Origin: Nemertoderma westbladi
Taxonomy: Eukaryota; Animalia; Xenacoelomorpha
Assembly: GCA_032718475.1 (NCBI GenBank)
Contig: JAUCBJ010004696.1
Location: 1 to 37,327, forward strand
Reading direction: 5' to 3'
Length of the DNA: 37,327 nucleotides
The translations under genes were made by a program, and so were the position numbers. The first letter of the stretch is position 1. The number at the start of each line of letters is the position of its first letter. This document shows positions 857-37,327 of this stretch, one piece after another. The notes below the pieces were generated by a model. That model made no database searches and was not told the origin of the DNA. It saw only the letters and a program-made list of their open reading frames with translations.

Positions 857-873
857 GACATTTATGGCATCCG

Positions 874-1755
<882 letters not shown>

Positions 1756-5054: not shown

Positions 5055-5141
5055 GGTTCAGTAGCTCAGTCGGTAGAGCGTTGGAAATTATATGTGTAGT
5101 AGGTATCGAGTTCGAATCCTAGTAAATGCGAATTATTTTTT
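5055..5141 (+). ncRNA. tRNA-derived Pol III module (A box, D-arm, B box, T-run) inside the LTR; not a canonical tRNA
   Basis: TAGCTCAGTCGGTAGAGC at 5062-5079 with GCTC/GAGC D-stem; GAGTTCGAATCC at 5108-5119; T-run ending at 5141. Acceptor, anticodon and T stems do not pair properly. Confidence 0.7.
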
Positions 5142-5194
5142 GTGCAGAATTTCAACTCATTTAAATTAACCGCTACAAATTAATTGCATTTGTC

Positions 5195-5370
5195 TGTACC
5201 AATGAGACTGTAGTTATTTGATTGTAACCAATGTCGTGCAAGTTATATATTAGCTGGACCAATAGCTATCTTTAAAACCTTGTTAGAATCTATAGAACAA
5301 TCGAGAATTTTCTCGATTGATTGCGGCACAAATTTGGTATAAAAAGGTGCGATTCGTTCATTAGTTATCA
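5195..5370 (+). promoter_or_regulatory. Putative Pol II promoter of the LTR: CCAAT boxes, heat-shock-element-like array, TATA box
   Basis: ACCAAT three times (about 5198, 5227, 5258); aGAAc-aATCg-aGAAt-tTTCt at 5294-5313; TATAAAA at 5338-5344; TTAGTT Inr-like at 5361. The second LTR family has the same CCAAT-then-TATA layout (35263-35497). Confidence 0.65.
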
Positions 5371-6834: not shown

Positions 6835-6845
6835 GTAGGAATGTG
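6835..6845 (+). promoter_or_regulatory. Atypical primer-binding site (GTAGGAATGTG), complementary to LTR 5768-5778
   Basis: Immediately follows the 5' LTR, lacks TGG, and is the exact reverse complement of CACATTCCTAC at 5768-5778. Confidence 0.7.
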
Positions 6846-7642
6846 TTTTACTGAACTACGGTTCGGTAGGACTAAAGTTATTTGAAAATTTTGTATTTTG
6901 AGGTAAAAGTTTATATTTGATTAGCTAAGTGCTAATTTTTTGAAATAAAATTTGATTTGAAAGCGCGTAAAATATTTTTGGAATTGAATACCGGTGTTTA
7001 AAAAGGGTTTAAATACCATATTGTACCAGTACAAAATTTTCGTAAAGTAAAACCTAACTCTTTTGTTTTTTCAGGATTCAGAACTCATTTCTAGGCTGTA
7101 ACGGGAGCAAGACCGTGTTTAGCAAGTTTGGGAGATAGATAACCCAACAACTTTGGTTGGGAAAATCGCGCTTCGTCCGCAACGCTGGAAACGGAAAGGT
7201 TTACGTTCGGTTTGTATCTGGGGATCTGTTTTTCTGGAGAATTATTGGAGTGGGTGAGTTCGAAAGTTGCATAAATAAGTTAGGCATTACCGTATTAGTT
7301 AAAATTATTGTGGGTTCCACTGTCTCAAGTATTTATGCATTCCGTATGATTTCTTTGTTCATTGCTGAATTAGTCCGTATTATTGTATTTAATTTACCTT
7401 TTGATAACGCATATCGTTATCCGATTTATTTGTTATAAAATTGGCCGCTAGGCTAATTTTATTATATACTTATTCCGTGACATTTATTTGCTGTAAAATT
7501 GGCCGTTTAGGCTAATTTTATCCATCTGCTATAAAATCGGCCGGTAGGCTAATTTTATAAGACTGTAATTAGTACCGTTTAGATATAAATACGGTAAACT
7601 CGATACTTTGACACTCACTTTACTTGACTTACAACTACCGAA

Positions 7643-10600
7643 ATGAGTGACAAACAAGACTATACGAAGAATACACCTACCGACTATGACTCGTGTGACG
7701 CGGATAAGTCAGCAGCGGAAGACCAGCAGGGGAAGACTCGCGAGCCTACCGAACCTACACCGTGTGCGTCACCAGTACATCCAACGGGAGTACCGGATGC
7801 CGTAGTACGAGGCGACGGCAGGACCGAGGACTTTCTAACTGTTCCGCAACCTAGACATAGGGAAACGGAAATGGTAAGTTCAGCAGGAAGCACAGAAAGT
7901 GTGGTTAGAAGCGTCGGAGGTTACATGGCGCATATAACCAGGAGTATTGGGGAAGGCCAACGCATATTAGACGAGTTGACCGCTCCGATGTCTCGATTCG
8001 AGTTCTACACCCTCCAGGTTAGAGTACAAAGTAGAGTACACAAGTCCGTAGATAACCTAATTGGTCTACAAGATCTAGCTAGACAGAGACAGGACATGGA
8101 TACTCAACTTAGAATCCTCGAGAAACTAATGATCACTAGAGAGAAACTGATTCAGTTTAAGTCGACGATTAGACAGATACAACAGGAACAAGCGGACCAG
8201 TTGTTAGGTGAGTCAGTTTCGGATGAATTATTGCAGCCCGAGGAAGAACAGGAACTGTACCGACTGGATGGACAATTGAAACATCTGACGGACCACTTAC
8301 GCATGTGCGGCGAAGACGTCGGCGATTTGGAAGCCGTGCCGGAATATACGAGGGAAACTTCATTCGCACAAATCGAATCGGCACCGGGAATGCTAAATCA
8401 ATCGCTGGTAAGTATTTGTAGCGAAATCTGCGAGGGAAGTATAGTCACGTCAGAAGTTGCTCGACAACAGCAAGAATTCCACCGACAGCGACAAGAAATG
8501 GAAGAACAAGCTCAACTTCTAGTGATGCAGGCAGCAGTAGAGGAAGAGAAGCTACGCGTTGCGAATATAGCAAGAATCTCTCATCTACAGGAACAAGCTG
8601 AATTAGAAGCAGCCGAGGTAGAAAGGTTAGAAGTAGACATTGCCCGACAAGCGGCAGCGGCAGCGGCCGAGGTAGAGCGACAAGCGGCAGCGGCCGAGTT
8701 AGAGCGACAGAACGCAGCGGCCGAACTGGAGCGACAAACGGCAGCGGCAGAGGCGGAATTAAAACGAGAAAGGTTAGTTTCGGAAGCACGGGCCGAAATG
8801 AGAACACGGCAAATAAAAGCTCAATCCGCTATACGACAAGCGGAGTTTGAGGCGCAACGTCAACAAACGGAACAACGAGAGAAGACGGCTAAACTTCATT
8901 TCGAACTCGAGAAGAAGGCGAGAGAATTAGCGAACGCCGAGGAAGATCTGGATCAAAAGGCCCGCGATCGATCGATGAGATCTCGTGATGGACATGATTT
9001 GGACCAGTTAGAAGTAAGACATCGCCAAATTCAGGAACGGAAGAAGGAAGGAAGCGTAGGAGCACCCGGACGGGAACAACAATTAGTAAAAGACGTGTGT
9101 CAACGATTCCCACAGGTAACTCATATGTTTGCACCGGTTACAACAAAGGAACCTGTTTCGATTGCGGGTAGTCGTGATATTTCTCCTATCCATGGTGCGA
9201 CGGAACACAGGTTTGTTATCCCGGACGAGTTTACACCGCCAAGAGCAACGTCGTCGCCTATTCCGAAAGTCAAAGTAAGTAACCCACCGATTACAGATCG
9301 TAGTAGTTTATTGACCGCACCTGCACTACTGACGACAAAACAGGTGAGTCCACCTTTGACACCTAAACCGGTTACGCATTACACGTACCCAATGACTTTT
9401 AGGCCTACCAGGCCTTTAGATTCAAAAGCGGTTACTCGACCACCGAACCAGTTTACATCGCAATCTACGACTTCGAGGAAGACTTGTGAGCCTACCGAAC
9501 AATGGAGACCAGTGGATACGCGACCATTCAACCAGTTTACATCGCAATCTACGACTTCGAGGAAGACTTGTGAGCCTACCGAACAACGAAAGCGAGACGA
9601 TGTTCCGAAACGAAACGTGAGAATTCGTACGACACAACGAACGCGAGCACGTCGACCACCATATCCAGATGATAGTAGTACTTCGAGCGAATCGGATTAC
9701 CCGAAACGCGAGGTATTTAGAACAGGGGCGGCCGATGAATATAAACGCGAGCGTTCAGATAACTCCTTTGTAGACAATCCTCCACAGAATACACCAACAC
9801 AGAAGGCGTTACCACCAGCGGGCGCGATCGGTGCACAACAATTCGCAGACATTGTCAACAAGTTGGCCCGGATTGAGGAACGTCTGGAGGAAGGTTACAC
9901 CGACAGTTCGAGAAATTCCGAATTCGAACACAATAGACACCCGAAGGAACCACAAAGACAGGTACCTTCAAACCCCACATCGTATCAGGGAAAAGCGCCA
10001 AGAAGGGATATCAACAAGGTTATCAACCAAGGACGCGAAACTCTGAACGTTGCCGAGGAGATAGCGAAATTCGCAGCCAGACAGGGATTGCCGGTACAAC
10101 AACCACCGAAGTTTTCCGGTAGCTCAAAACACTGGCATACCTTCGTAGACTATATCGAATCCCAGATTGCCGTGTGCGCCTTTACGTCACGGGAGAAGTT
10201 CAATTACCTGCTCCAAACGTTGTCAGGAGAACCTAAACGTTTGGCGGAGACTTTCGTCGGTGTACCGGACGCTTTCGAACTAGCGTACGATCGTTTAACT
10301 TCGATATACGGAGGTACAGTGAGCATGGCCAGGTCAGTAATAGAGGAACTCTGTAAGGGAGGGGCTATCACTAAACCCGTCGACTTACTAAAACTAGCTG
10401 ACGAGATCAAGAACGCTATCACTACCTTAAGATCAATTGGACAACTTGATTACGGGAATACCCCTACAGTCCTATTAAAGATAATAGGACGACTCCACCA
10501 TCGACTTCGTCGGGAGTGGAGGAAGGTCGAATACCAGCGAGAGGAGCGGGGAGGATTCTTAAAACTAGAAGATGTGTACCTTTTAATATCCAGGGAGGCG

Positions 10601-11749
10601 GTAGTAGAAACTCGATCTAACTACACCGACCAGCACATCGTGGCAGAAGGAATCACGCTGCCATCCTCCAACCGACAAAAACCCCAGACAACATCCACTA
10701 AGACGGCCACTTACGCCACACCGACGGAATCACGACAATTCTCAGACGGTAATAGAGTATCTGCGCCCATTGGGACGAAACAGACGAGACAGCAACTCAG
10801 CACCGACTTCAACGGCTGCCAATACTGCGAGCATCTAGGTAAGCGGTATATTGGTCACAAGTTACGAGGTTGTCGACAATTTCGCGAGTTGAACTCGGAA
10901 GAACGACGGCTGCAGATACGGCCACTGGACTCTTGTTGGCGGTGTACGCGACACGGACACATGCGTAAGGATTGCCCAAATACTGACACTTGTCCATCCT
11001 GTGGACGCAACCACGACGGTCTGCTCCACACAGACAGCCACACGCCGACGAAACGCTTCGCCAGGGAACACCCGGAAGCAGCAGCGAGATGTGATGCGGC
11101 CTACCGAAAACGAGAATCGAAAACGACTCCAACCTTCGTGACCCATATTGAGGATTGCTTCTCAGAACAATCCGGATCGTCGGACGAAGAATCAGAAGAC
11201 GACGATGAATATTCCAATGGAGACGAACAACCGTCGATCGCGCTCCTGACTACTGATCAACTGAAGGGGTTCAGTGTAATCCCGATCAAGGTTACTGGCA
11301 CAAAAGGGAGCAAGAGGATCTATGCGATTCTAGATTCAACCTCATCCCATAGCTACGTGGACAAAAAGATAGCTGACGTCGTGACGGATCTAAAACAAGG
11401 TAAGCACGTCAGTTATACAGTAAGTAGTATGCACGGACAGCGTGCAATACCAGTGACACGAGTTAAGTTGGACTTAGACTCTCTTCTTCCAAAATCGCAA
11501 CACAGCGAGAGGGAGAGGTCTTTGTTGCCCTTTAGAGATCTAACTTTTGCGGCCACGAAGGACTTTAGTAACCTACTAGGTCCAGTGCCGGAACAATCTC
11601 TGGAGGACCGTAAGTATTTCAGACACCTTGGTGTACCCGAATGTCCTGTCAATTATAGATCGGTAGCAATGCTGATCGGGACGGACCAATTCAACCTACA
11701 TCAGGTGTGGGAAACCAGACCATCGGCAGTTGTAGCGGGAAACGCATAA
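7643..11749 (+). CDS. gag: BEL/Pao Gag plus aspartic protease (N-terminal part of the polyprotein; ends at an in-frame TAA)
   Basis: 1368 aa. Long E/Q/A/R coiled coil; PPKFSG...W..F capsid-like block typical of Pao Gag; CQYC..H..C, CWRCTRHGHMRKDC and CPSCGRNHDGLLH; protease motif YAILDSTSSHSYV and MLIGTD. Confidence 0.92.
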   Translation: MSDKQDYTKNTPTDYDSCDADKSAAEDQQGKTREPTEPTPCASPVHPTGVPDAVVRGDGRTEDFLTVPQPRHRETEMVSSAGSTESVVRSVGGYMAHITRSIGEGQRILDELTAPMSRFEFYTLQVRVQSRVHKSVDNLIGLQDLARQRQDMDTQLRILEKLMITREKLIQFKSTIRQIQQEQADQLLGESVSDELLQPEEEQELYRLDGQLKHLTDHLRMCGEDVGDLEAVPEYTRETSFAQIESAPGMLNQSLVSICSEICEGSIVTSEVARQQQEFHRQRQEMEEQAQLLVMQAAVEEEKLRVANIARISHLQEQAELEAAEVERLEVDIARQAAAAAAEVERQAAAAELERQNAAAELERQTAAAEAELKRERLVSEARAEMRTRQIKAQSAIRQAEFEAQRQQTEQREKTAKLHFELEKKARELANAEEDLDQKARDRSMRSRDGHDLDQLEVRHRQIQERKKEGSVGAPGREQQLVKDVCQRFPQVTHMFAPVTTKEPVSIAGSRDISPIHGATEHRFVIPDEFTPPRATSSPIPKVKVSNPPITDRSSLLTAPALLTTKQVSPPLTPKPVTHYTYPMTFRPTRPLDSKAVTRPPNQFTSQSTTSRKTCEPTEQWRPVDTRPFNQFTSQSTTSRKTCEPTEQRKRDDVPKRNVRIRTTQRTRARRPPYPDDSSTSSESDYPKREVFRTGAADEYKRERSDNSFVDNPPQNTPTQKALPPAGAIGAQQFADIVNKLARIEERLEEGYTDSSRNSEFEHNRHPKEPQRQVPSNPTSYQGKAPRRDINKVINQGRETLNVAEEIAKFAARQGLPVQQPPKFSGSSKHWHTFVDYIESQIAVCAFTSREKFNYLLQTLSGEPKRLAETFVGVPDAFELAYDRLTSIYGGTVSMARSVIEELCKGGAITKPVDLLKLADEIKNAITTLRSIGQLDYGNTPTVLLKIIGRLHHRLRREWRKVEYQREERGGFLKLEDVYLLISREAVVETRSNYTDQHIVAEGITLPSSNRQKPQTTSTKTATYATPTESRQFSDGNRVSAPIGTKQTRQQLSTDFNGCQYCEHLGKRYIGHKLRGCRQFRELNSEERRLQIRPLDSCWRCTRHGHMRKDCPNTDTCPSCGRNHDGLLHTDSHTPTKRFAREHPEAAARCDAAYRKRESKTTPTFVTHIEDCFSEQSGSSDEESEDDDEYSNGDEQPSIALLTTDQLKGFSVIPIKVTGTKGSKRIYAILDSTSSHSYVDKKIADVVTDLKQGKHVSYTVSSMHGQRAIPVTRVKLDLDSLLPKSQHSERERSLLPFRDLTFAATKDFSNLLGPVPEQSLEDRKYFRHLGVPECPVNYRSVAMLIGTDQFNLHQVWETRPSAVVAGNA
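8645..8770 (+). repeat. 27-bp coding repeats (RQAAAAELE) in the Gag coiled coil
   Basis: Repeated CGACAAGCGGCAGCGGCCGAG-like units. Confidence 0.8.
9437..9586 (+). repeat. 84-bp-period tandem duplication in gag
   Basis: NQFTSQSTTSRKTCEPTEQ is encoded twice, with the DNA copies 84 bp apart. Confidence 0.9.
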
Positions 11750-14700
11750 GCCTGCAGAACGCCGATAGGGTGGTATACTCGAGCGCCTGTGCGCACACTA
11801 GACGTAAGTGACGAGGAAGATGATGTACAGAGTACATGTAGTTTATTAACTACAAATTCAATTCATTCCTTCTCACACGACGTGAACCATACTACACTAC
11901 AGTCGACAAAACACGACAGACGTGTAACTAGTATGATAAGTCACAAGGAGCAGCTAACCCACAAGGTGAGTTTAGAACTTGGGGGGAAGACGAGACAGCT
12001 AGAGATTCCATCGACGACAGATGATAGGCTTGCGAGTCTACCTACCCCAATAACCTCAACAGTGCCCGTCGATATTGACGATGACGCGTTGAAAATTCAT
12101 CAGTTGGAACAAGCCGCCTTGGACAAAGAATTAACGGAGAAGACTATCAGGTGGTTAGAACAAGATACAGCTGAACCTGGTAGCTACGAACCTTGCATGT
12201 CGGAACAGGAGAAACAATCTCTGAAAATCATGGAAGATACTATCCGCCAGACGAAAGACGGACATTATGAGGTAGGGATGTTATGGCGTAGCCAAAGTCC
12301 TAAACTTATAAACAACTATCCACTGGCTTTAAGACGTCTACACTCAATACGGCAACGTCTATTAAAGGACGAGAAAGCCCATCTGCAGTATAACACTCAA
12401 ATGGAGACGTATTTGACAAAGGGATACGCTATCCGAATGACTAACCCGGAGCAAGTGACCGACCAGACGTACTACTTGCCACATCACTACGTGAGACACC
12501 CCGACAAACCAGACAAAGTACGTGTAGTCAATGAATGTGCGGCTCTGTTTGAGGGAATGTCCCTCAATAGTGAGTTGATGGATGGACCGAACATGAATAA
12601 TTATCTTATGGGGGTGATTATGCGCTTCCGTCAGCGTCAAGTAGCTTTGACTTGTGACGTTGAAGCGATGTTTCACCAAGTAAAAGCGTTAGAGCAAGAC
12701 AGAGACAGTTTGCGGTTCCTCTGGTACCCGGAAGGAGATTTAAGTCTACCACCGGCGACTTACCAAATGCAAGTTCGCGTTTTCGGTGCCAGAGACAGCC
12801 CAAATTGTACGATGTACGCCCTAAAGCAGGCCGCTAGAGATCAGAAACATTTATATGACCCAGAGATAATTAGAATTGTGGAGCGTGACTTTTACGTTGA
12901 TGACGGATTACAGAGTTGCGACACAGTAGAACGTGCTACAACAGTGGCACATCAATTACGGGACTGCTTGGCGGGCGGAGGTTTTAACCTCACCAAATTC
13001 GCCTCAAACAGTGCCGAATTAGTAGACTCATTCGGAACTACTGAGCGTGGAAGAGGTGACATAGACCTAGAGTTCGAACCACTACCGACGACTAAGGTGT
13101 TGGGGCTCTTTTGGGACCCAAACACAGACAACTTTCGAGTGAAGGTGAGACTGGACAGTCAAGGGAACACACTGACCAAGAGATCATGCTTGTCAAAATT
13201 GAGCCGATTGTTTGATCCGTTAGGATTCATCAGTCCAGTGATACTGCAAGCCCGCATTTATATGCGCAGTATATGGAAAGATGGACTAACATGGGACGAG
13301 CCGATCTCATCAGACCAAGTGGACTTATGGAAGACCTGGGAGGCGGAATTATCTTCGCTAGAGGATTATTTCATACCCAGGGTTTACTTTCCATTGCAAA
13401 GTACATTTCCTGACAACTTGGAACTACACTGTTTTTCTGACGCCAGTGACAACGGTTTTGGTGTGGCAGCGTACTTACGCAGACAAGTAGAATCAGACGA
13501 GTTCGATGTTTCGCTCATTACTTCTAAGGCTAAGACCATGCCTACTAAGTATATGACGACACCACGAGCCGAGCTACAAGCCGCAACCCTGTCAACCACC
13601 ATCGTGAACCTCATACAGACAGAACTACAGTCGAGTTTACAGATATTTTATTGGACTGACGCGACGTTGGTTTTATTTTACATAAACAACGACACACTTG
13701 AATTCAAGACATTCGTTGCTAACCGTCGCGCGGAAATTCTAGACCGTTCAATAAAAGGGGATTGGCGACATTGTCCCGGACCACAAAACCCAGCTGATAT
13801 TGCGTCGCGAGGAATGATGCCTGAGGAATTCTGTAAACCGGAGAACAAAGAATTTTGGCAACACGGACCCCAATTCTTGCAGAAATCTACACAAGATTGG
13901 CCTCCGTTATACGACAATAAATCTAACACTATCCCGAAGGACGCCGAAATCAAGAAACCAAAAAAGGGGAAGACAAAGAAAAGGACAACGGCGGCAAAAC
14001 TCAAGAAAAAACCGAAGGCGAAATGGAAAGATATAACTTCAAAGGTCAAGAGAGGAAGACTTGCGAGCCTTTCTACACCAGACATATCGCCAGACGGTCA
14101 ACCAGACACGTTACTAGACGGTCAACCAGACGTTTTGCCAGACATATCACAAAATGTTCTACCAGACACTAGTGACGTACTGACAAACAGTAAAGCCGCA
14201 GTTTCCCTATTGGAGCGGCCTTCTGTTGACAAACAACCAGATACGTTACCAGACGTATCGCCAGACACATTACTAGACAGTCGACTAGACATTTTGTCAG
14301 AAACATCACAAAATGTTCTACCGGACATTAGTAATGTACCGACTAACAATAAAGCCGCAGTTTCCCTATTGGAGCGGCCTTGTATTGACAAACTACCAAT
14401 TTTGACACACTTGAACAACCATAAGCACGGTGAAACCTCATGTATTACAGATGTGGGTAGTACCTACGCTAATGTAAATACAGGTGTTACTTTGCGCTCA
14501 AGAGACATACCGAACTTGCAACCTATGATGAGACCTGGGATTAATGTCGGCAGGAAAATAAGTTTACCGAAACCTGCTGACCCCATAGAGTTCAAACCAC
14601 CATTAACAATCGACTTACAAAGTACTGACGATCAAGGTAAGAAGACGAAGAAGGACAAATTACTTGTAGACCCCGACGGATCAACAGTCAACAAGGGAAT

Positions 14701-15229
14701 ACTTACCGGCGGACCCGTGGGCCCTTCTAGTAATTCAAAACCTTCCAAAATTTCCATTGACTTACCTGATGACGTCACAAATACTCATGTCGACCGTATT
14801 GTAAACTTAACAGATTCTTGGTCGAACGCTTGCCGAAAACTAGCGTGGATTGTACGTTTTGTACAATACGTTAAAGGCAAACGTGACTTTACACGTCGAC
14901 TTACATTGGCTGAGATTGACAGGTGTGAGATTAAATTAATTCGCCATTACCAACTGCGATATTTCGCGCGCGAATTCACATCTATAAGTCAAGGTCAACC
15001 AATCAAGTCGTCACCAATACTGAGTTGGAGTCCGATAATTTATAATGGCTTAATTTGTCATAAATCTCGGCTTCAAAATATTGACTTTAACACAAACTTT
15101 AGGTACCCAATAATAATACCGCAACATCACGAACTACAACGTGCAATGATACTGGACGCACATTTACATCTGAAACACGCTGGAAGACACCACTGTCTTT
15201 CCTACTTACGTACTATTTGTATTAATTAG
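11750..15229 (+). CDS. pol: Pol: reverse transcriptase, RNase H, long linker and start of the integrase zinc finger
   Basis: In frame with the preceding ORF (...GNA*ACRTPIGW...). YYLPHH, KVRVV, DVEAMFHQV, FGARDSP, FYVDD, KVLGLFW, LFDPLG, FSDAS, PRAELQAA, YWTDA, NPADIASRG, HLHLKHAG. Confidence 0.95.
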   Translation, partial: ACRTPIGWYTRAPVRTLDVSDEEDDVQSTCSLLTTNSIHSFSHDVNHTTLQSTKHDRRVTSMISHKEQLTHKVSLELGGKTRQLEIPSTTDDRLASLPTPITSTVPVDIDDDALKIHQLEQAALDKELTEKTIRWLEQDTAEPGSYEPCMSEQEKQSLKIMEDTIRQTKDGHYEVGMLWRSQSPKLINNYPLALRRLHSIRQRLLKDEKAHLQYNTQMETYLTKGYAIRMTNPEQVTDQTYYLPHHYVRHPDKPDKVRVVNECAALFEGMSLNSELMDGPNMNNYLMGVIMRFRQRQVALTCDVEAMFHQVKALEQDRDSLRFLWYPEGDLSLPPATYQMQVRVFGARDSPNCTMYALKQAARDQKHLYDPEIIRIVERDFYVDDGLQSCDTVERATTVAHQLRDCLAGGGFNLTKFASNSAELVDSFGTTERGRGDIDLEFEPLPTTKVLGLFWDPNTDNFRVKVRLDSQGNTLTKRSCLSKLSRLFDPLGFISPVILQARIYMRSIWKDGLTWDEPISSDQVDLWKTWEAELSSLEDYFIPRVYFPLQSTFPDNLELHCFSDASDNGFGVAAYLRRQVESDEFDVSLITSKAKTMPTKYMTTPRAELQAATLSTTIVNLIQTELQSSLQIFYWTDATLVLFYINNDTLEFKTFVANRRAEILDRSIKGDWRHCPGPQNPADIASRGMMPEEFCKPENKEFWQHGPQFLQKSTQDWPPLYDNKSNTIPKDAEIKKPKKGKTKKRTTAAKLKKKPKAKWKDITSKVKRGRLASLSTPDISPDGQPDTLLDGQPDVLPDISQNVLPDTSDVLTNSKAAVSLLERPSVDKQPDTLPDVSPDTLLDSRLDILSETSQNVLPDISNVPTNNKAAVSLLERPCIDKLPILTHLNNHKHGETSCITDVGSTYANVNTGVTLRSRDIPNLQPMMRPGINVGRKISLPKPADPIEFKPPLTIDLQSTDDQGKKTKKDKLLVDPDGSTVNKGILTGGPVGPSSNSKPSKISIDLPDDVTNTHVDRIVNLTDSWSNACRKLAWIVRFVQYVKGKRDFTRRLTLAEIDRCEIKLIRHYQLRYFAREFTSISQGQPIKSSPILSWSPIIYNGLICHKSRLQNIDFNTNFRYPIIIPQHHELQRAMILDAHLHLKHAGRHHCLSYLRTICIN
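14075..14400 (+). repeat. Internal tandem duplication (PD-rich units) in the RNase H-integrase linker
   Basis: SQNVLPD...KAAVSLLERP is encoded twice; AAAGCCGCAGTTTCCCTATTGGAGCGGCCTT is duplicated near 14192 and 14351. Confidence 0.85.
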
Positions 15230-16295
15230 ACCAAGTAAAGCATTAAGTTCAGTGACACGTACGTGTATTATTTGTAAAAAGGTACATTCTAGAATAGGTA
15301 CCCAAGAAATGAGTGAACTACCACAAGCACGACTTCAAGCATTCAGGCCACCTTTTACAGAGACTGGAATTGATTGCTTTGGTCCCATACATACGAAACG
15401 TGGACGCATACTAGTAAAACGCTGGGGACTGATTTTCACATGTATGTCCAGTAGGGCAGTTCACATTGAACGTGTGATGGATCTTTCCACCAACGCGTTT
15501 ATACTAGCACTGCGGCGATTTATCGCTAGACGCGGACTAGTAAAATGCTTGTACTCAGACCAAGGGACAAACTTTGTTGGTGCTCGGAATGAAATTGCTA
15601 GAGCCTTTAAGAAATTAGACCATGATCAAATCTCGAACGAACTACAACCTCACAAGATTGTTTGGAAGTTCAATCCTCCAGATAGTCCTTGGAGAGGCGG
15701 AGTCTGGGAGAGATTGATTAGATCTATCAAGACAGCCATGGCAAAAGTCATTCCAGTAAACCACATATTGACAGACGACCAACTGACAACATTGTTTGTT
15801 GAAATCGAGGCAATACTAAATACTAGACCAATAGTATTAGTACCCGATGACAAACAATCTCAGTTTGCTTTGACTCCGGCACACCTGCTAATGCAGGCAC
15901 CGACGACTTTGACGCCTATTTCTATTCCAACAGAAAGCGACAGCTACGGTAGAAAAGCGTGGAAAATCACGCAACTACTGGCTAACAAATTCTGGGAAAT
16001 ATGGCAAAACCATTATTTGCCCTCTATTTCTGCCAGAACAACTTGGTACAATAACACCCGCGCATTAAAGCCGGGAGATCACGTGCTGTTGGCAGAAGTG
16101 AATCTGAAAAGACGCTTCTGGATAACAGGTGTAATTTTAGCCACACATCCATCTATGGATGGAGTGACAAGAACTGTGACGGTACGGACAATTGACGGTC
16201 GTACAGTAGACAGACCGACTCAACGTCTCGTACTCCTTGAAGAGACTCGTAACGAGTCTGGAGACTACAAATCTCCACCTAATACTAGTAAATAA
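15230..16295 (+). CDS. Integrase core and Pao-type C-terminal domain (frameshifted relative to pol)
   Basis: CIIC, GIDCFGP, RAVHIE, SDQGTNF, GGVWERLI, NTRP, LTPAHLL, FWEIW...YL, GDHVLL, DGVTRTV. Frame changes near 15215-15230, between the HH and CC of the zinc finger. Confidence 0.95.
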
Positions 16296-16957
16296 TTAGG
16301 AGTTTACAAATAGATTTCCACGTACCTGTACACCGTAGTAAGGACAGCGGTAGAATTCCATTGTCTTTATATGTGAACATTGAGGGTAGTACCCTTATGT
16401 GTCACATAGGAGCGGGATTTGTAGGTATAAGAAATGGAATTCTACTTGGAACTCACAATATTGAGACATTTTCGAAATTTTAGACAATCCATTTGGATTT
16501 GAAAAATTTTTAAAATTTTCTCCAGTGAATAGATTTCAGGGTACAGTCGGGTGGAACTTAAAATTAGAGAAACAAGAGAGGAAGACTTGCAAGCCTTTCT
16601 TAAAATTTTAATTAAATTTTACACGGTCTTGTTTCAATAAGTTACGCAAATAAATAGACTCCCCTATATTTATTACTAATTCTTGACTGCTTATTTTCTG
16701 ATAATAGTTTGGGATCAAAAAGTGAGTATTTTAGACTCACAGCCAGTTTAGCCCAAATTCGTTTTTATTTCGGCAAAAAATTTTAGATAAGAAGCAGCGT
16801 GTCATTAAAGAAACCCTAGATCTTAGGCTATGGGTAGGAGGTTAGAGCGTTGTCGAAGCCCAAAAGGCAGACGAAACTCTCACGTCTCCTCACAACTAAC
16901 CACAAACTCTGTTGTATTCCCTCTAGTAGTAATGATTATGTAACTACACCCCTAATT

Positions 16958-18965
16958 ATGGAGAAAGGGACACAAGGAGAGCCGAGATGGGGATATGATA
17001 TCCAAGAGGAGGCAGCAGCGCCATTCGAAAGATTTGGAGCCAAGGATTATACTATATTCGGTATAAAAGAATTATCGGAAAGTACAGCGAAACTCGCGAG
17101 AACTAAATATGACTCGAACGTATTAAAGAGAAGGCAAAACACATTAAACGAAAGAATCGAAAGTTTGCGCCAAACCTTCAACGAACTTTACCCGTACGAT
17201 GCTTTGTGTGATACGGGAGACATTAGCGAAGACCCCGATACTGAAATTAGTCGTTTGTATCATACCATGCAATACCTAAAGGCGCACGAACCTATGCCCG
17301 CGGTACGCGATGAATTCGATGGAATGCATCTTTACAGACGAACTCGAGGGGACGATAGAGAAACCAAGGAAGCATTTTCAGTTTATAAACTTTATTATCA
17401 ATGCGGTTCTTGTATGCGCGAACAACGAAATGCGATTCCGATGCGTTTGAATAAGGAAAATCCCGAACCGATATTGGCGAGGTGTTCGAACCATCAACAA
17501 CTATGTTACCCTATGAAGGAGAACGTATCGTGGAGATTACGGAAGAATCACGGCAGACGCGCGCGCCTATCGGTCACCTCGGTGATGAATTCGAAGTAAC
17601 TACTACGATCGCCGACGATCCTTTAGAGGAACTTCTTGAGATAGAAAGGAACCTCCCGAAGAAATCTCAGACGGAGATTCGACAACTTGAAGCAACAGAT
17701 GCATAGTTTGTATACAACCTTCAGAAACCTACCAACCCATAGACCCAGATGATTACGATTATAGTGTGGGAGGAAGCGCTCGACCGATTGGAGATCTTAT
17801 ATACGAACGAGTGTGGTACCCTGCCAATACGATGTGTAGTAAATGTGGCGTCGCTGGACATCATATGACAAAGTGCAGTGGAAAGCACATTACTACGACT
17901 CAGCTAATCTGTGGATGGTGTGGGGATCAAGGGTCTCATACCTTTTATACTTGCTGGAGATTTATGGCTCAATGTACTTACTGCAATATAAAAGGACATC
18001 GAGCATCTGAATGCCAACTAAGGGACATACCTTATGAACACGAATCTGTAAAACTCGTGAGGAAGTTATTTGCTGAGTGGGAAGATTTAGCCGACGAACA
18101 TGTATCGGCACAAAGAAGACGGTTTCCGATGAGAGCGCATCTCGGATTTTGGGCGGTAAATCCTCAAACGATGATGTCGGAAGGATATATCTCCGCTATG
18201 CCCCAATATGACGAACTTATCGAGGTTGTCGATATTTTGCCCCACGACAGCGGATTCCGAGTGGTGCGCGAGTATCTGTTACAGATTCACCCAGATAACA
18301 AAAACACGTGGAATTTTCAGAAAGTCGTTAATCGTATCACGTATGGTGAATTTGATCGTTTCCGAACTGAAAAGCGGAATAAAGGAGCTTGGTTAACCGT
18401 CGCATGGGCGTACCGAGCCGCGTTTTACCATAAACGTATACGAGCGAGCGTATTCGAGGAAGAAGAGGTCCTAGAGGCGACGAATATACCAGCCACTCCG
18501 GTTGCGCCGTCTGCACGTCACCCTCGGGAGGACGGACAGGGTAGGATCATACGGGTCCAGAAAGTGGGCCAACAATTAAAGAAAATTATTAATGTAGAAG
18601 AACGCAAGGGAGCTGAGCCGACCATTCGAGTTACTCGGGATACGGTATCACTTCCAAGAGAACCAGTAGGAGGATCGGGACATACACCAGCTGATCAACA
18701 AGGGGCGCAAGCTACTCTTGGGTCTGCGTCGTCCGCTTCTCGCGCGTTCCCAGACGTTCTACCAACTGTAGTGACGACTGATCGGTCACGAGGAATCGGT
18801 CGAGGTTTTGGGATGCCAAATAGACGAATTTGCGAGGAAATAGTTGCACCGTCTCTCAACGTCCCAAGTAAACCAGTGACTCGTCCCATTAGTCCCATAT
18901 CGCGAGCAAAGTCACCTGTGCGCAGTTTTCGAGGACGCGGCAGGGCTCGATCCACTAAGCGATAA
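16958..18965 (+). pseudogene. Accessory ORF3 of element A: unknown N-terminus, three CCHC zinc knuckles, basic RS/RG tail; two frameshifts
   Basis: Three ORF-track pieces; the last two align in order with element B ORF3. CSKCGVAGHHMTKC, CGWCGDQGSHTFYTC, CTYCNIKGHRASEC. Frame changes near 17480 and 17703. Confidence 0.8.
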
Positions 18966-19765: not shown

Positions 19766-21673
19766 TATAGAATTATATTCTCTAAATGCCGTGGATTTTC
19801 AAAATTTCTATTTTATTCGGATTAACTTTGTAAAAGATTGCTTTGAGTTCTCATTCGTATTGGTTCTATCTATTGTACACCCATCGGTCAAGTGGTTCAG
19901 TAGCTCAGTCGGTAGAGCGTTGGAAATTATATGTGTAGTAGGTATCGAGTTCGAATCCTAGTAAATGCGAATTATTTTTTGTGCAGAATTTCAACTCATT
20001 TAAATTAACCGCTACAAATTAATTGCATTTGTCTGTACCAATGAGACTGTAGTTATTTGATTGTAACCAATGTCGTGCAAGTTATATATTAGCTGGACCA
20101 ATAGCTATCTTTAAAACCTTGTTAGAATCTATAGAACAATCGAGAATTTTCTCGATTGATTGCGGCACAAATTTGGTATAAAAAGGTGCGATTCGTTCAT
20201 TAGTTATCAATCTCAACCTTAGTTTACAGATTATATCTCTTGTTTATTCTGTCATTAGTATTCAGATTACATTTTGTATTATTTTCTGCAATAAATTCGG
20301 AAATACCGCTATCTGCTTTTCTTTTACTATGCTTCACCACGGTGAACCCAGCTAAGGGATAGGATGGCAGGCTAGAGATCGGGCCGCAGCAATGAACAGG
20401 AACATCACGGGAATGTAGACGAGAGACAACCCGCAATACCTTCTTGAGTTATTCGCCCATCGCCTGAAAGGTTAGACAGCGTTCGATCCTTGCTACCTAA
20501 GTGTAAGACCAAAGATCAAAAGGTAGACGTAGTGACACGCTGCAAGCCTAAAATTACATCATAGGGACTGTACTGTCTTGATTCAGGAAAACCCACAGTA
20601 GACCTTCACATTCCTACGGGGAGGGGAGAGAGAGCGCAGGCAGATACTAGTACGCAGATAGGACGTAGGCACACCGGTACAAGGCATACACATTGGTTAG
20701 GGTGCAGCAAACTGTACGCTTAACTCTTGCTAAGTACAGGTGCGTGTGCGACTATTTGCAGTACGACAGTGTCCATTGCATTAGAACTTGTAGGCTAGGG
20801 GGGTTGCTGTGTTTTCACCTGAATTGGGATTGTACCGTTCAGGCGGTAGGGCAGTTTACACTAGGCGCAAATAAATTGAGGCTATCAGGGATATACTAAC
20901 ATCTACCGTGTCCCCGCCAACGCCCTAATAGGAAGTTACCCGGACTACCTGGGTGACTAAAATTCTAGATAGGAGCCAGGATAGCTATTAGTACCCGTAC
21001 GCCTACAGTAGTAAACTAACACATCTCTTCTTAGTATCAGGGACCTGGTACCTAAAATTGCCGAATTCTGGGCGTAGTATTAACCTTATGCCTGAATTTT
21101 GAGTCCTGGAAATACGCAAGAGGGGAAGGAACCTTATCATTTGTGAGTATTGGACCTACAAGTTACAAAATTAGAATATTCGTAAAATGCACACCGTACC
21201 CAGTAATTATATATGAGAAGGAGCAAAACTGTTTTGACCGTTCAGAATTAACACACGCGCGTTAGAAATTATTTACACCTCGAAATATATAAAATTAACT
21301 TTCGTCCTTACTGTGCTTTGCCCGCTAGTTAGACATCTCCAAATCTCTGCCTGTACCTAGCTAGCGTCCCTTTGCCCAACCATATAAATCACACCGCGGC
21401 AAAGTATACGAGCCCCTTAGTCCGTCAGTGAGTCAGCCTGATTTTAGGATTCGCTGCGCGGGATTTGTTTTATCGAAGTTTGTCTGCTCGTAGACTGTTT
21501 TCTGCCTCACCGGTTATAAGAGATCGATACTGCAATATATTCGTTTACTTAGAGTTTACTGTTTTGGTGAGAAGGTCGGATTTATGATTTGATTTACAAA
21601 CTTTACAGTAGGATATTGCAGGTATTGTTACCGTCTCTTCCAATTAGTAGGAATAGGCGTATCTCTTCCAATA
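19766..21673 (+). repeat. 3' LTR of element A
   Basis: Copy of 4927-6834; only one difference noticed by eye (C6303 vs T21142). Confidence 0.96.
19894..19980 (+). ncRNA. tRNA-derived Pol III module, 3' LTR copy
   Basis: Identical to 5055-5141. Confidence 0.7.
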
Positions 21674-21848
21674 ATAATAATACTTATATATATATTATAA
21701 GTGTATACCGGTATTCTAATATTATATATATAGCGTTACATTGAGTAATGGTATCGGTAATTAATTAATAGGCTTACAGTTGATACTGAATTACTAGACT
21801 TGCTTTAACTGTCGTTATAGTAGTAGGCATTCAACTGTGCAATCAAAC

Positions 21849-22411
21849 ATGGCTGACACAAAGCAAACTCTGTCAGATAGTCTCCTAGAAAGAACAGTCT
21901 GCAACTCAGACAGGAGTGCAGAACATCTGAGACCAAAGTCCAAGTCCCCTCCTACTGTAAGAAAGGTCATCTTTTCAGTAGTAGTATCAGACCCTAGGCT
22001 AGTCAATCACCGTAGGTCTATTATAGGCACTCGGGCTCAAGTCAAGAGGGACCAAGAGGCAGCTGTTAAACAGCAGTACCAGCAACACCCGAACCGAGAA
22101 CTTATTTCTCAGCGGTCCGACAACTACAGTAGTTCAGACACTGTAGAGTCTACATCCGAGATCGGAGCAAGGATGGCAGAAGTGGTTTATCCGGATCCAC
22201 TTCTAATTCATCCTGGTGCTGTACTCACTAGAGTATTGATCGCTGTGGAAGAACATCAAATCGATTGGGCAAGAAGTAAGCGATCTACCAAGGACAGTTA
22301 TGCGGGATACACAATGGAGGAACTGAAGTCTATTGTTGAGACACAATGGAACTTCCCCAGACCTGGACTCCTGTTTAACTTATTGGAAGCTGCCTGGGAG
22401 GACTTATATAG
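21849..22411 (+). CDS. Unidentified ORF, truncated by the minus-strand LTR; probably TE-derived
   Basis: ATG in good context (AACATGG); about 187 codons of balanced composition after AT-rich DNA; reads into the LTR at 22412. No motif recognised. Confidence 0.45.
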
Positions 22412-22724
22412 TGTGACGGGATCCCAGTTTATCCGGTTTTCAATCTACGCGTCCCCGCCGTGTGTGAAAGGTGAAAGAGTTTATTGATCGTTGTATGTAG
22501 TTCTCCGGGTAAAATAGTATAGATATAAATATAGATGACACAGAATTTATAATATGATGTTGATAGTAAACGGAAGACGGGTGACGGTGATTAAAGTCCC
22601 GGTACTTCCCTAGCTAAACTAACATAACTATACACTGACTAAATGACACACTGACTAAATGATACACTGACTAAATGATTGCTGTACTGATAATATATAT
22701 ATTGCACGGATGGCCGTTGTTACA
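22412..22724 (-). repeat. Probable 3' LTR of element C (313 bp)
   Basis: Minus strand begins TGTAAC and ends GTCACA, contains AATAAA, is preceded by a GGGGGGAAGG tract, and has three ACACTGACTAAATG repeats. No second copy in the window. Confidence 0.65.
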
Positions 22725-24545: not shown

Positions 24546-24676
24546 TACTGCATACTTATTATGTACTATTATTTTTATTTTTATTTTCTTTATTTTTTGT
24601 GGGAGGGGCGTCTCACCCTCAATCCCACCCCCCTCAGTCCAAAACTTGGACGACTAAACTCCTCTCTCACTCTGCT

Positions 24677-25030
24677 CTAAGGTGCTCCCTCTAGTAGACA
24701 GCACTTCCCTACAGCCCTTCTGTAGGTCTTCCTGTCTTTCGCACCTATCTTGCCACCTATCCGTACTTCTACCGATCGGACTCTTCCGTCCTCATCGGAT
24801 TAAGTGCCTACAACTCTCGCCAACCGCCACTGGTTGTTGATGATAGTATCATCCGTGACGATCACGAAATCACCCTCCCTTAACTCTCTGTTCGTCTTCC
24901 TCCACTTGCTTCTTCTGTGGAGCGTGGGTAGGTATTCCTCAACCCACCTCCTCCAATACTCTGCGCTTATTGCCTTAGCAACTTTCCAACTCTGGCGGGA
25001 GTGTATGTCATCTGGGTCTATACCCCGCAT
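24677..25030 (-). pseudogene. BEL/Pao integrase C-terminal domain remnant
   Basis: YWRRWVEEYLPTLHRRSKW...LREGDFVIV...WRLARVVGT*SDEDGRVRSVEVR...CCLLEGAP*; internal stop at 24800-24802. Confidence 0.9.
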
Positions 25031-27841
25031 ATCGATACCATTCTATTGGATATCCCACGATCAAACCGAACCTAAGGAGATGACACCCGAGCTCTTCGAT
25101 AGTATCACCTTTGCTCAGCGTTTGTCGCAGAGACTACAGATACCTCATGTTGAGATGATGCGAGAACCGAGTCAGCTGAGTTGCGTAAAACAATAGTTCA
25201 AAAAATCGTACGCAACGTGCCTCCACATATTACGGACTTTAAGGAAGTGGATCGCGCGGGGACGAATATCGCACCTTGTATCTTGCGAGGATATCTGACG
25301 AAAACGATTCGATTATGGATCGGAGTTGGAACGTTTGAGACCTACACCGATATCGCGACCAATTGGACCAGTAAACCTATTAGTTTTGATGATGAAAAGT
25401 CAATTGGGAGAATTTGGAACCCTACCGATGATTTACTCGACGATTGGGACGTGACTAGCCGATCTCTAAAGGAGAATGGTTATATGTTTTACGACAATGA
25501 AGGAGGAAGCCATCAGCAAAGCCTCACTTCGAAAACTATACAGATTAGAGCACCAGATGGCGTGTTACATGTCTTCAGCCGACAGAGGAGTGATAGAAAG
25601 ATGCCTATGCCGGAAGGAACGACGCAAAGACACGCGATGATAAAACAGATAGTTAAATCCATGGACCTGGCTTGTAGCATAGAAGCTAGGATTTTGCCAA
25701 AGGCCGTGCGAGATGTTGTGTTGGACAAGAGCATCGTCAAGATCGGATCCGGTGTACGGGATGACCTTATTAGCGATTTTGCGGGAATGCCCACGGAAGA
25801 GGATCGATTGCCTATGCCATATGTGGATACTAGACCATTGTTGCTTTGGGCTATTGAGCAAGGATATTTTAGGGAGTATAACACGCTAAAAACTGGGACG
25901 GGTTATATATCATATCTAATGTTCAGTTGGAATCATAAGGAGAGTAAGAGGAGCAAATACACGGACGTATACGGAGAGGGAGATACCCCCGGCGTAAACG
26001 AGTTCGAGTCACAGTTGAAGTGGCGAGGTTGCGTGTATTGGGCGATTACTTCACCTCCACAAATAATCTTGCAATACTATTTAGCGATAGAATCTTCAGT
26101 CAACATTTCTTTCATCGCAGATGTAGTATCTAGAACCCTAAAGCGACATCCGTTATGTCTCGGTGACGGATATACCTTTTACGACGGAGGAAGGACGCAT
26201 ACTGATGTATTCCGACGATTTCTCCAACCCTTTTATAACACTGATGCGCACTGCGAAGTTTTCACGCGAGCGGGACTTAGCTTTTTTTTTTAGCGGGACG
26301 TCTATCTCACTCACGCGGGAAGCCTAGTCGACAGACCGTCGATGTTAACGTTAGTACCCTATGACGGGGAACGCCACGCGGAATTCAAAGGCCCGGAAGG
26401 ATCCTGGAAGGCACGCGAGCCTACCGCCCATCATGACGATGTGGATCCGACCGAGTTTGCGATGATAGACGAACCGTTGCGGCAACTCATAGAGATAGAG
26501 GAGAACCTTCCGAGGAAGACGCGAACTGAGATACGCGAGTTGTGGAAAAGCGATGCCATGGTTTGTGTACAACCTACGGAGACGAACATACCGAGTGACC
26601 CGGATGATGAGAATTATCACGTGGACGGTAGCGCTCGCCCCATTGGAGATCTCATCTATGAGCGAGTTTGGTACCCTGCCAAAACTATTTGTGGCAGATG
26701 CGGGGCAACTGGCCACCACGCAAAGAAATGCGGAGCAAAGCACATATCTCTACCGGAGTTGGTATGTAACTGGTGCGGGGATCAACGTTCGCACACTTTC
26801 TACACTTGCTGGCGTTTCGTTTGCTGGCACGTATTGTAATATTAAGGGCCATAGGGCATCCGAATGTCAACTTAGAGACGTTCCCTATGAGCACATGTCA
26901 GTTAAAATCGTTCGACAGCTATTCGACCATTGGGAGGATCTAGCAGACAAGCATGTATCGACGCAGCAACGCCGTTTCCCTATGAGAGCACATTTGGGAT
27001 TTTGGGCCGTAAACCCTCTCATAATGTCGAAGGAAGGATACGTATCGGCTATGCCTCAGTATGATGAATTGTTGGAGGTGCTGGATATATTGCCTTTGGA
27101 TAGCGGATTTAAGGTTGTGCGGGACTACTTTCTGTAGGTACACCCCGACAACAAGAATACTTGGAACTTTCAAACTGTGGTGAACAAGATTACCGCCGGG
27201 GAATTCGACAAATTGCGAGTTGAACAGCGGAATCGAGGAGCCTAGCATTCGATAGCTTGGGCATACCGGAGCGCATTTTATCCCAAACGCGTAACCTCGT
27301 GTATTCTAGACAAGACCGATGTTTTGCGTGAGACTGGCTTCAAGGCCACGCCGTTAGCAGAGAAGACTCGTCACCCACAGGATGATCAGCAATTTCGTAT
27401 ACTCAAAGCCCAAAAGGCCGGACAAGAGATAAAGAAGGTAGTAAATGTCGCCGAGAGGATGACATCGAAATCGCAAATCCGGATGACTCGGGGCACGGTT
27501 TCCCTTGCTAGAGAACCACGCGGAGGGACAGGTTACGCTTTGCCGGAACCCATTAGGATTCAAACTACGTCAGAGAGCGAGGTGTCAGCGGACGGAACAG
27601 TCCCACCTTTTCGACTTCCTCCCAGCGTTGTAGAGACTTGATCCGATGTTAAGTCAACGATTGGAATCGGACGAGGATTTAGAGGATTGAGCGCACGACG
27701 GATGTGCGAAACTCCCGTGTCCCATTTCCTAGCGTTTTGGAACCACCGACAACTCGACGCCAAAGTCCGAGCCCAGTTCGACCTCGACCACCACCCAATC
27801 GCACTAGAGAACGTGGACGAGCCCGCTCAGCGAAGGAATAG
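25031..27841 (+). pseudogene. Accessory ORF3 of element B: WRN/DEDDy-like 3'-5' exonuclease-fold domain, three CCHC knuckles and basic tail; multiple frameshifts and stops
   Basis: TIQIRAPDG.LHVF, LPKAVRDVVLDKSIVKIGSGVRDDL, YVDT and YYLAIES follow the motif order of WRN-like exonucleases. GSARPIGDLIYERVWYPA and RRFPMRAHLGFWAVNP are identical to element A. Ends ...RGRARSAKE* at 27841. Confidence 0.75.
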
Positions 27842-27876
27842 GAAAGCGAGAAGAAGGAAGGCTTGCGAGCCTACCG

Positions 27877-27975
27877 ATTTGGATATTTATATTTGGATAT
27901 TTTATTTGGATGTTATATTGGATATTTATATTGGATATTTTATTTGGATATTATATTTGGGTATTTATATTGGAC
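27877..27975. repeat. Short tandem repeats ATTTGGATATTT(A/T)T
   Basis: About seven copies visible. Confidence 0.8.
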
Positions 27976-30170: not shown

Positions 30171-30187
30171 TCCGTCCCGAAATCCTG

Positions 30188-34384: not shown

Positions 34385-35144
34385 TGCTCACCCCCCACTT
34401 CATGGCTTGCCCCTACATTATCGCGGCCTTCTCATATTTCAAATCCTTGCAAATATTATATAATATGAATTAATTCAATGTATATCTTATTATTATTTTT
34501 TTTTTGAATACATCACACCTGAGCGACCGGTACTCAATTTTAATATTTAATAATAATATTTTGAATTCAGTAATGGGAATTGCTATTCTTTCGGTATTGG
34601 TTGGGCAGTGCCTGAGTGTATCTTTTTTTGTTTTTTTTTTGAATAATATTGTGCTTTCAAATTGAAAATGCGGTACCTTGGATATCGATTTAATTTAGTA
34701 TTCTATATAGTATTCAATGTATCCTTGTGCATTTAGGTATTAATTGTGCTATGCTGTTAAATTTGGTAGAAATAATCTGTACAGTATGTTTTATGGGCTC
34801 TGCCCGATGAATAAACTTGAAATTGAAATATTTGTATGTACGATGGAATGTATTTACGCCGTACCTGCAATATTAAGTATGCAATAATTAGATAGTGATT
34901 ATTTTATATTTTAGGCCCTACCAGTAGATTTAGAAATATTTGTAAATAGTTCGTATTTCGATTGGTGAAAACAGTCTTACTTACTGTTTTCATGGAGCGG
35001 TGATGAATTATTTCACTATAAGATAGCATTTATAGTTTAACTTTAACGTAAAAACTTTCGAAAATCCGACGCATTTTGAGTAAGTTACAGTAATGTAATA
35101 TGCCTATTCATATTTGTACACATAAAGCCCCTAGTTACTCTCGT

Positions 35145-35228
35145 GGCGTAGTGGTCAGATGGTTAAGGCGTTGGTTACATTACAGATAGGTTACGAGTAC
35201 GAATCCCGGTCGGGAAATTTGTATTTTG
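35145..35228 (+). ncRNA. tRNA-derived Pol III module in the element B LTR
   Basis: TGGTCAGATGGTTAAGGC (A box/D-arm) at 35152-35169; GAGTACGAATCC (B-box variant) at 35195-35206; same relative position as in element A. Confidence 0.6.
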
Positions 35229-36144
35229 GGGCAATTTATTTTCATTTGGTGCAGATTGGTGGACCAATGAGATGCGTACAACGTATCGAACAATGAGCCA
35301 GGCCAATCATAGGGCATAGAACATCTTATTGCTCAAATGTGAGGCTATGGAAAATTCTGTTTGGATTCCATGTCCCAGATTTAGTGTAAGGCCGGTTTGC
35401 ATTGAACGATGAGCTGGGCCAATCATAGAACATCTTATTGCTCAAATGTGAGGCTATGGAAAATTCTGTTTGGATTCCATATTTAGTGTATATAAGGGCT
35501 GGTTTGCCTTCGGTTATCACTTCACGTTACCTCGTTATTCCCCTTGTTATAATACGTTAGTCACCTTATCCTTAACTTTGTCGTTTCTTGTTGAAACTGT
35601 TTTGTAAATTTGTTTTGTTAAATCTTTTGCTAAACTGTAAATACACTGTCAACTCCTGAATATGTTTTTCTTTGGTCCAACTTTGGGACAGCCAAACATT
35701 GGGAAGATGGCAGCCTAGACCGTTAGGCCGTCAGCAACGCAGGGAAAGGATGTCCACAACACGCTAGCGCCCACATTAGGTTAGACCGCGCACCCCCTTC
35801 GCCCCTTCGAAATGCTCCAACTTGCCATGCAGCGCCCGCTTTGAGGAAGGTAGGACTTTGTTTGACGCCCTTGCCCGAAGTAAGACCTATAGATCAGGGT
35901 AAGCGTGACGCCGTTCTGGGACGCCGCAAAATTTAGGATCAAATAATTATATTTTAGGCAGAACCCCTTTGTCAGTCCTGCAAATCCCTGGGTCACCTGT
36001 ATACCTCACAGGTAGGTGCAAGCTATTGCCGTTCGTCAGTGCGCAAGTACATATTAGGTACGGACAGCATACGTTTCATAATTTAGTGATTTGTTAGTAC
36101 TGACTGTTTGGTACCGGTTTGCTTTGTAGAACATACATTAGTAC

Positions 36145-36166
36145 ACCCCCCCCCCCCCCCCCCCCC
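36145..36166. repeat. Poly-C tract
   Basis: About 22 consecutive C residues. Confidence 0.9.
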
Positions 36167-37327
36167 TGCCTGAAGTTAGTTATTTGATCAGGCAAGGAGT
36201 ATTTCTGCTACCGGCACACCGCTTGGCCTAGGGAGGTTTTATTAATATCCTACCACGCCTTGCCACGTACTGATAGGTATTTGCTGCTAACTACCGCAGC
36301 AACAAAGTTCTAGAATCAAATTAGTATACCAGATCAGCTAACGTACGGTAGCGATTAACCCCTATTCTTATCTTACAACCAGAATCTGGTATTAGTGCCG
36401 ATCACGGGTGTAGTTACTAACACCGTGGTTGCCCAGTTGAGTTGTGGATAGGAAGGAGAGAGCTTTGATGTCATTTGTAATTATAAAGTTCTACAAAACG
36501 CGACTAGCTTATTTTAGTAGCTAGCGCACGGTATCGTTTTGGTCAGAAAGTTACTAAAACCTAGTGAAAAGGAGATACACCAAAATTGTTTTATTGTAAC
36601 ACACCCACACACACACGCCCTAAAACATATTTACCCTTAGAGTTCTACTAGTTATAGCGCACTTTAGATTACTTTAGGCAGAATTTATCTGTACTTTACT
36701 ATTCGTATTTGTAAATTTAGGATCTGATATTTAGTTACAACAAAGGGGAGTATTTCATTATTTCGTTATTAAACTGTTGTTTTCTGCGCAGCGGTATTGT
36801 TACATTAGGCACGACCTTCTTTAGACTGATTCAGACAGGGAGATCAGTATTGTAACGCTAGGGCTGTGATCCACCTAGCTCGTATATAAACCATATAAAT
36901 CACACCGCGGCAAGTTACGGTATTTAGGACTGTCAGCGATAGTTAGGATTCGCTGCGCGGGGATTGTTTTCCCGTGAGTTTGGTCTGTTACTGTAACTGT
37001 ACATCTGCCATACTGGTTAGAGGACAGGTTTCCTTTTGTCTAGTTCGTAGGCATTAGACCCGCTCACGTACATAGAATAGGCACCAGGCTCTGCTCCTCG
37101 CCAGTAGTAGTTTGTGTACTGTATCTGTTTGTTTAGATATCCTGGACTGGGATTTGTTGTCAGATACTGTACGAGCCCGTTTCATTACTAGAGTCTCACA
37201 GTAAGATACATCGTTACTGGGATCTGGTAAGCGGTATACTACTGGACTTTACGGTTAGAGATATTCTATAGCTTCATATTAGTAGACTTGTAGGCCGTAT
37301 GATAGCCCCTACCGTAGAGGACTTTAC

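Follow-up and report, generated by a model that had tools for sequence, protein, structure and literature searches.

A zinc-knuckle third open reading frame with a probable WRN/EXD2-like exonuclease-derived domain in a BEL/Pao retrotransposon family of Nemertoderma westbladi

The window analysed here is the whole stretch of 37,327 nucleotides of contig JAUCBJ010004696.1 (assembly GCA_032718475.1) from Nemertoderma westbladi, and it carries a BEL/Pao long terminal repeat (LTR) retrotransposon, element A, with a second unit, element B, in tandem after it. Our subject is the third open reading frame (ORF3) of element B, for which an earlier note had proposed a WRN-like DEDDy exonuclease domain fused to zinc knuckles in the place of an envelope protein (Env). 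All features lie on the plus strand unless stated otherwise. In order, ORF3 of B comprises an exonuclease-like piece in one open frame of 379 codons (25154..26290), three CCHC zinc knuckles (26690..26867), a conserved region of no known family (26868..27300), and a less conserved C-terminal part with a tail rich in Arg, Ser, Pro and Gly (27301..27841). The B copy itself is decayed. On the targeted profile comparison set out below, we consider it quite probable that the domain is of exonuclease origin.

All the motifs quoted in the earlier note are present in the single open frame, GVGTFE at residue 57, TIQI at 128, LHVF at 138, LPKAVRDVVLDKSIVKIGSGVRDDL at 181-205, YVDT at 223 and YYLAIES at 308. 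At 25168-25178 the B copy is short of ~0.2 kb kept by other copies, and the open piece is closed by a stop (26291-26293) absent from other copies; the further stops downstream in B lie at 27135, 27243 and 27639. Homology between the two third frames starts at B 26348 and A 17500. Two of the knuckles of B are intact (CX2CX4HX4C at 26690-26731 and CX2CX5HX4C at 26765-26809) and a frameshift near 26820-26831 disrupts the third, whereas all three are intact in A, so that the claim of three knuckles stands in full for A and for two of the three in B. The zf-CCHC Pfam matches are sub-threshold (E 0.003-0.6), the CX2CX4-5HX4C pattern itself being present. The region after the knuckles is 74-80% identical to A, with 80% over 101 amino acids bearing out the strong conservation described earlier; it is interrupted by the in-frame stops at 27135 and 27243, and homology searches with it found no relatives. 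The tail, previously called RS/RG-rich, is indeed rich in Arg, Ser, Pro and Gly in A, and in B too with its frame shifted, the C-terminal part of B holding the stop at 27639 and a frame change.

The evidence for a DEDDy/WRN-like origin comes from targeted comparison. Alignment by hhalign against 11 bacterial WRN-like sequences gave 83.6% with E 8.2e-6 and a score of 41.4 over 89 columns, while the best of 158 shuffles scored 23.8 (5.6%) and the best of 20 natural ORF pieces from the window scored 22.2. With hmmsearch the WRN-like profile scored 11.5 bits, rank 1 of the 141 ORFs of the window and reached by 0 of 5000 shuffles. The best structure matches of a 7-row version of this profile are WRN, Mut-7 and EXD2 (E 3e-28 to 2e-19); two rows, L151 (mis-extended) and L148 (carrying a duplicated stretch), were left out of an earlier 9-row set. 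The match runs colinearly from LPKAV through YVDT to the SK motif. Its statistically supported part is the alphaA-beta4-ExoII block (25694..25768), in which D204 aligns with the single invariant column of the profile as the Asp of ExoII that follows beta4, with surroundings like those in the family; the YVDT stretch, corresponding to the beta5 'hhD' motif (25820..25831), is in register with the profile. A bacterial DEDDy matrix scores the ExoII block at 25 bits, with the next-best site at -2.8, and an ordered chain of eight blocks reaches 42.0 against a shuffle maximum of 23.8 (0/300). Furthermore, both models predict the order strand(FYD)-strand-strand-helix-helix-strand-helix-strand, in agreement with the DEDD core, the topology being that described in PMC7968707.

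The active site can be placed with less precision. For ExoI we prefer FYDNEG (25487..25504), in which the putative catalytic D114 and E116 would leave the D-x-E intact; it scores -0.2 in the matrix, precedes the Q of IQI by 16 residues (19 in the profile), and is predicted by both models to be a strand after a helix. Following it, QIRAPDGVLHVF and LPKAVRDVVLDKSIVKIG are by eye colinear with a stretch of EXD2, bar a helical insertion of ~35 residues, as is TIQIRAPDGVLHVF, a predicted beta2-beta3 hairpin (25535..25576). A second candidate, ISFDDE (25379..25396; D79/E81), has the best matrix score (5.8) and stands 51 residues before the same Q. The earlier note had taken GVGTFE (25322..25339; matrix score 5.3) as ExoI, which is probably wrong, as it has no Asp, lies ~70 residues ahead of IQI and is less well spaced than FYDNEG; since two better candidates keep the D-x-E, the loss of catalysis argued from GVGTFE is weakly founded. 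The ExoI block is not above chance in the bacterial matrix, and an alternative MAFFT register is without acidic residues. For ExoIII, YYLAIES (26075..26095) was chosen by eye and was not picked by the matrix; it offers Y309-x3-E313, with Glu where Asp is usual. The matrix gave no significant ExoIII site, and in a Y-x3-D found at 340-344 the Tyr occurs in the B copy alone. A literature search found nothing on an Asp-to-Glu variant of ExoIII. Judged from the sequence, the active site is likely D114/E116/D204/E313, and since this set keeps four carboxylates, loss of catalysis is not indicated, if still possible.

Direct evidence that the domain matters to the element family comes from differences among its copies, of which 38 of the best 40 of 109 were classified, two at the break being left out. 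Those segregating among other copies are synonymous in 18 of 19 cases against an expectation of 33% (p 3e-8), and those private to the B copy in 6 of 19; the labels segregating and private were assigned by eye from depth ratios, with one site counted twice and one lying just past the stop. Since all but one of the segregating differences are synonymous, the exonuclease-like domain is under purifying selection: it serves the family as a working component, and the B copy itself is decaying neutrally. No amino-acid-changing difference falls on D114, E116, D204 or E313 among the best 40 of 109. Comparison of A with B, for which the earlier note had suggested a dN/dS measurement, gave dN 0.27 over 351 codons and no ratio, because dS by the NG86 method is saturated.

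Summed contig depth points the same way. It reaches 18,000-58,000 over 25114-28151 in runs X1-X3 against 23-86 at 28586-29000, a measure that marks a high-copy family and is not a copy number, drawn from four runs representing at most three samples. The exonuclease part and the knuckle region have equal, very high depth in 4/4 runs, and the junction at 26291 is bridged by contigs (records 8, 15, 16 and 32). Depth and selection thus agree that the domain belongs to the family and is no one-off insertion. In this window, ORF3 of A is without the exonuclease-like part. Contigs from other copies depart from the A sequence at that very point, their loose ends lying at 17504 and 17510; in a contig of 1887 letters the first 494 fit A 17017-17510 and the remainder continues past the match. 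Given that the ~1.4 kb absent from A is the size of the extra part of B, ORF3 of A has probably lost this length by deletion, and the missing DNA would be the exonuclease part. The env position assigned to the ORF earlier holds for A, whose ORF3 lies between integrase and the 3' LTR; for the exonuclease part it is not directly visible, since B has no upstream gag-pol and A no exonuclease part in the window. The earlier note passed over both of these circumstances, as well as the published precedent discussed below (PMC5408684).

Element A has the gag, protease, reverse transcriptase (RT), RNase H and integrase set that defines BEL/Pao elements, with LTRs, a primer-binding-site-like (PBS-like) sequence and a polypurine-tract-like (PPT-like) sequence. 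Its gag-pol (7628..16295) matches DUF1759 (E 2.7e-11), Peptidase_A17 (E 3.3e-42) and DUF5641 (E 1.3e-21) but carries an in-frame stop (11747-11749) and changes frame near 15200; a long low-complexity insertion (13900-14700), with two 53-amino-acid repeats, lies between its RNase H and integrase. ORF3 of A (16838..18965) consists of an N-terminal part of its own, a break at ~17504-17510 and the B-homologous part. That N-terminal part (16960-17500), ~180 amino acids that include CxxC and C-x5-C, matches no family and is without a counterpart in the B copy. The 5' direct repeat (4927..6837) comprises the LTR, a PBS-like site at 6726 and a 110-nt leader; the 3' direct repeat (19766..21676), with its PBS-like site at 21565, doubles as the 5' end of B. 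As the repeats extend ~110 nt beyond the PBS-like site and are near-identical, with 2 differences in 1911 nt, A and B in tandem have one LTR in common. That they differ so little although gag-pol and ORF3 of A are broken points to copying in trans, to recombination or to an assembly effect. A CA repeat of ~0.9 kb occupies positions 864-1750.

In B, no sense-strand similarity to gag or pol was found in 21677-25200, so that B is without a gag-pol of its own here, and its tie to BEL/Pao is the similarity of its ORF3, PPT and LTR to those of A. A 229-codon orphan frame (21798..22487), which has no Pfam match, is possibly the start of the gag of B, judging by position only. It is followed by a pyrimidine-rich stretch and, on the minus strand directly upstream of ORF3, by the integrase tail of a third BEL/Pao element (24689..25042; DUF5641, E 4.7e-18). 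Beyond this tail on the minus strand (~22500-24650) lie a run of purines and a stretch rich in repeats, with tandem units of 38 and 52 nt at 24000-24550, which may be the LTR of the third element. After ORF3 come a 3' untranslated region (UTR) interrupted by a long interspersed nuclear element (LINE), and then the PPT, identical to that of A, and a diverged 3' LTR, 74% identical to that of A over 111 nt (34991..37200, the right end being approximate). On the simplest reading, B was once a full element; after the antisense insertion, a deletion would have removed its gag-pol. The LINE (~28413-34830), which encodes endonuclease and RT, has its 5' part at low, single-copy-like depth, and inside its RT region a 1.45-kb element (32005-33458) has long terminal inverted repeats (87-93%) and TACGTA at both ends. 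A 16-nt motif, GGAAG-R-CT-Y-G-Y-G-R-GCC, recurs at nine sites in the coding regions and 3' UTRs of A and B (7731, 9477, 9561, 14054, 18986, 19253, 19448, 27856 and 28017; five in 3' UTRs) and is a possible protein-binding or packaging site. By eye, both LTR types contain tRNA-like stretches with sequences resembling A and B boxes (~5050-5130, 19890-19970 and 35150-35215); ARAGORN called no tRNA gene in the window.

Based on these observations, we propose that ORF3 of B is a decayed copy, from a high-copy BEL/Pao family, of a gene for a WRN/EXD2-type DEDDy 3'-5' exonuclease acting as an RNA-trimming accessory protein, a reading to which, with catalytic activity included, we give slightly less than an even chance. 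ORF3 would be expressed apart from gag-pol and would act on RNA. The three CCHC knuckles, together with the basic tail, would hold single-stranded RNA and deliver its 3' end to the active site of the nuclease, by analogy with TbRND, whose C-terminal zinc fingers are described as boosting RNA binding and trimming and as presenting guide RNAs (PMC7797062). As substrate we favour the small RNAs of host silencing or their precursors over the 3' ends of RNA or primer belonging to the element itself, and we hold this counter-defence target only tentatively, as a rather unlikely refinement. The fullest version, in which a DEDDy ribonuclease captured and joined to a knuckle array by a BEL/Pao element trims host piRNAs or their precursors, suppresses small-RNA silencing and so aided the rise to hundreds of copies, is a speculation that we regard as doubtful.

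Several results weigh against this proposal and would favour a fold other than DEDDy, the ExoII-like stretch being a chance or fragmentary resemblance in an orphan accessory protein. Blind searches of Pfam, PDB and 1.8 billion proteins gave nothing usable; no PF01612 match rises above the cut-off, and no Pfam family appears at E up to 10. Without ExoII the chain scores 17.1 against a shuffle mean of 13.8 (72/300), so that only the ExoII block is above chance. Structure prediction lent no support to a DnaQ-like fold, the single-sequence fold being meaningless and the seeded fold circular for residues 181-269, with the rest not assembled. The motif order and origin claimed in the earlier note therefore hold for the ExoII block and the targeted profile, and not for the other blocks, the blind searches or the predicted structure. 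Two further matches were rejected: P0001 is an unrelated repeat protein, and L001, the sole metagenome match, was reached via one knuckle. The latter contig carries, at 146-7985, an unrelated and apparently intact gag-pol-env LTR-type element. Against a non-DEDDy fold stand the colinear 89-column match, far beyond its controls, the upstream hairpin and D-x-E at family-typical places, and the precedent in LTR elements, which raises the prior; we consider such a fold unlikely. Much less probable is that the exonuclease-like part is a separate insertion or a captured host fragment at this locus only, as its absence from A in the window and the adjoining antisense fragment might suggest; equal depth, bridging contigs, purifying selection and the ~1.4 kb at the matching point in other A copies make this very unlikely. 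A divergent envelope gene has only its position in its favour, together with the env-like genes of some belpaovirids (PMC8742986). No signal peptide or transmembrane segment was found, the 19-residue hydropathy maximum being 1.33 over seven pieces (deleted parts lay outside the scan), and since there is none, the ORF is not Env, as had been argued before; the nucleic-acid-binding knuckles and basic tail agree, and over the pieces scanned this alternative is largely refuted and hardly credible.

A closer relative of our proposal is a DEDDy-derived but catalytically dead adaptor, resembling Egalitarian or EXD1, that would transport or package the element's RNA or shield it from silencing. The Glu in the ExoIII candidate and the ambiguous placement of ExoI, with one register lacking acidic residues, are consistent with it; the Egalitarian exonuclease domain is described as binding a localisation signal (10.1101/2025.08.03.668247), inactive EXD1 and Maelstrom are discussed in PMC5408684, and the recurrent 16-nt motif is a candidate binding site. 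On the other hand, D-x-E is kept in two ExoI candidates and the ExoII Asp is kept, and none of the best 40 of 109 differences changes an amino acid at the four candidate residues. We regard a dead adaptor as possible, if on balance unlikely. If it is correct, the element encodes an RNA adaptor; if instead an active enzyme trims host small RNAs, a mobile element in animals would be encoding a counter-defence enzyme.

Among known systems, belpaovirids with an env-like third gene (PMC8742986) share with this family the gag-pol order, LTRs, PBS, PPT and a third gene after integrase, but in this family that gene does not resemble env. At ~16.6 kb and with LTRs of 1.8 kb, element A also exceeds the ranges of 4.2-10 kb and 0.2-1.2 kb stated for Belpaoviridae in that ICTV profile, which mentions env-like third genes alone; the same holds for the accessible text of a BEL/Pao survey (PMC3118150), where 'exonuclease' occurs 0 times. 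Our literature search found no BEL/Pao DEDDy ORF3 and no fusion to knuckles, although Repbase, subscription journals and supplements might contain one. With the WRN/EXD2/Mut-7 (Nibbler)/Egalitarian group of PF01612, the domain shares an ExoII block, a beta5 Asp and an SK motif that align with the profile; it differs in having no Pfam match, two insertions, and unconfirmed ExoI and ExoIII. In that group the accompanying domain is a helicase, MUT7-C or LOTUS domain, and in ORF3 of B there are knuckles instead. DnaQ-like nucleases are also encoded by other mobile elements, Dada (DEDDy; PMC3706591) and KolobokD (DEDDh; PMC9587614), but these are DNA transposons with proposed roles in DNA-end processing, and their available descriptions mention no knuckle array. 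TbRND (PMC7797062; PDB 7c42, 7c45) likewise has a DEDDy domain followed by RNA-binding C-terminal zinc fingers and trims small RNA 3' ends; it is, by its description, a cellular mitochondrial enzyme with four fingers, and as no sequence match was found the likeness is architectural.

The nearest precedent is in bdelloid rotifers, where DEDDy third ORFs are described in Juno and Vesta, and also in Athena/Terminon elements (PMC5408684). There, a role in 3'-end processing or silencing was proposed and left untested, and what such third ORFs do in LTR retrotransposons has been an open question since. As seen or proposed for our family, Juno and Vesta are described as having a non-env third ORF after pol that is DEDDy-like, without a transmembrane segment and with an altered acidic set (DEED in their case). 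Our observations extend this arrangement to BEL/Pao and add a module for RNA binding, which suggests that the substrate is RNA: ORF3 is much longer here, its domain being joined to three CCHC knuckles, an orphan region that is conserved and a basic tail, and the Glu substitution would be in ExoIII, the likeness being one of description. Finally, whereas the rotifer variation test, reported for the env and GDSL ORFs, looked neutral (PMC5408684), the nuclease-like domain described here is directly seen to be under purifying selection in a high-copy family.
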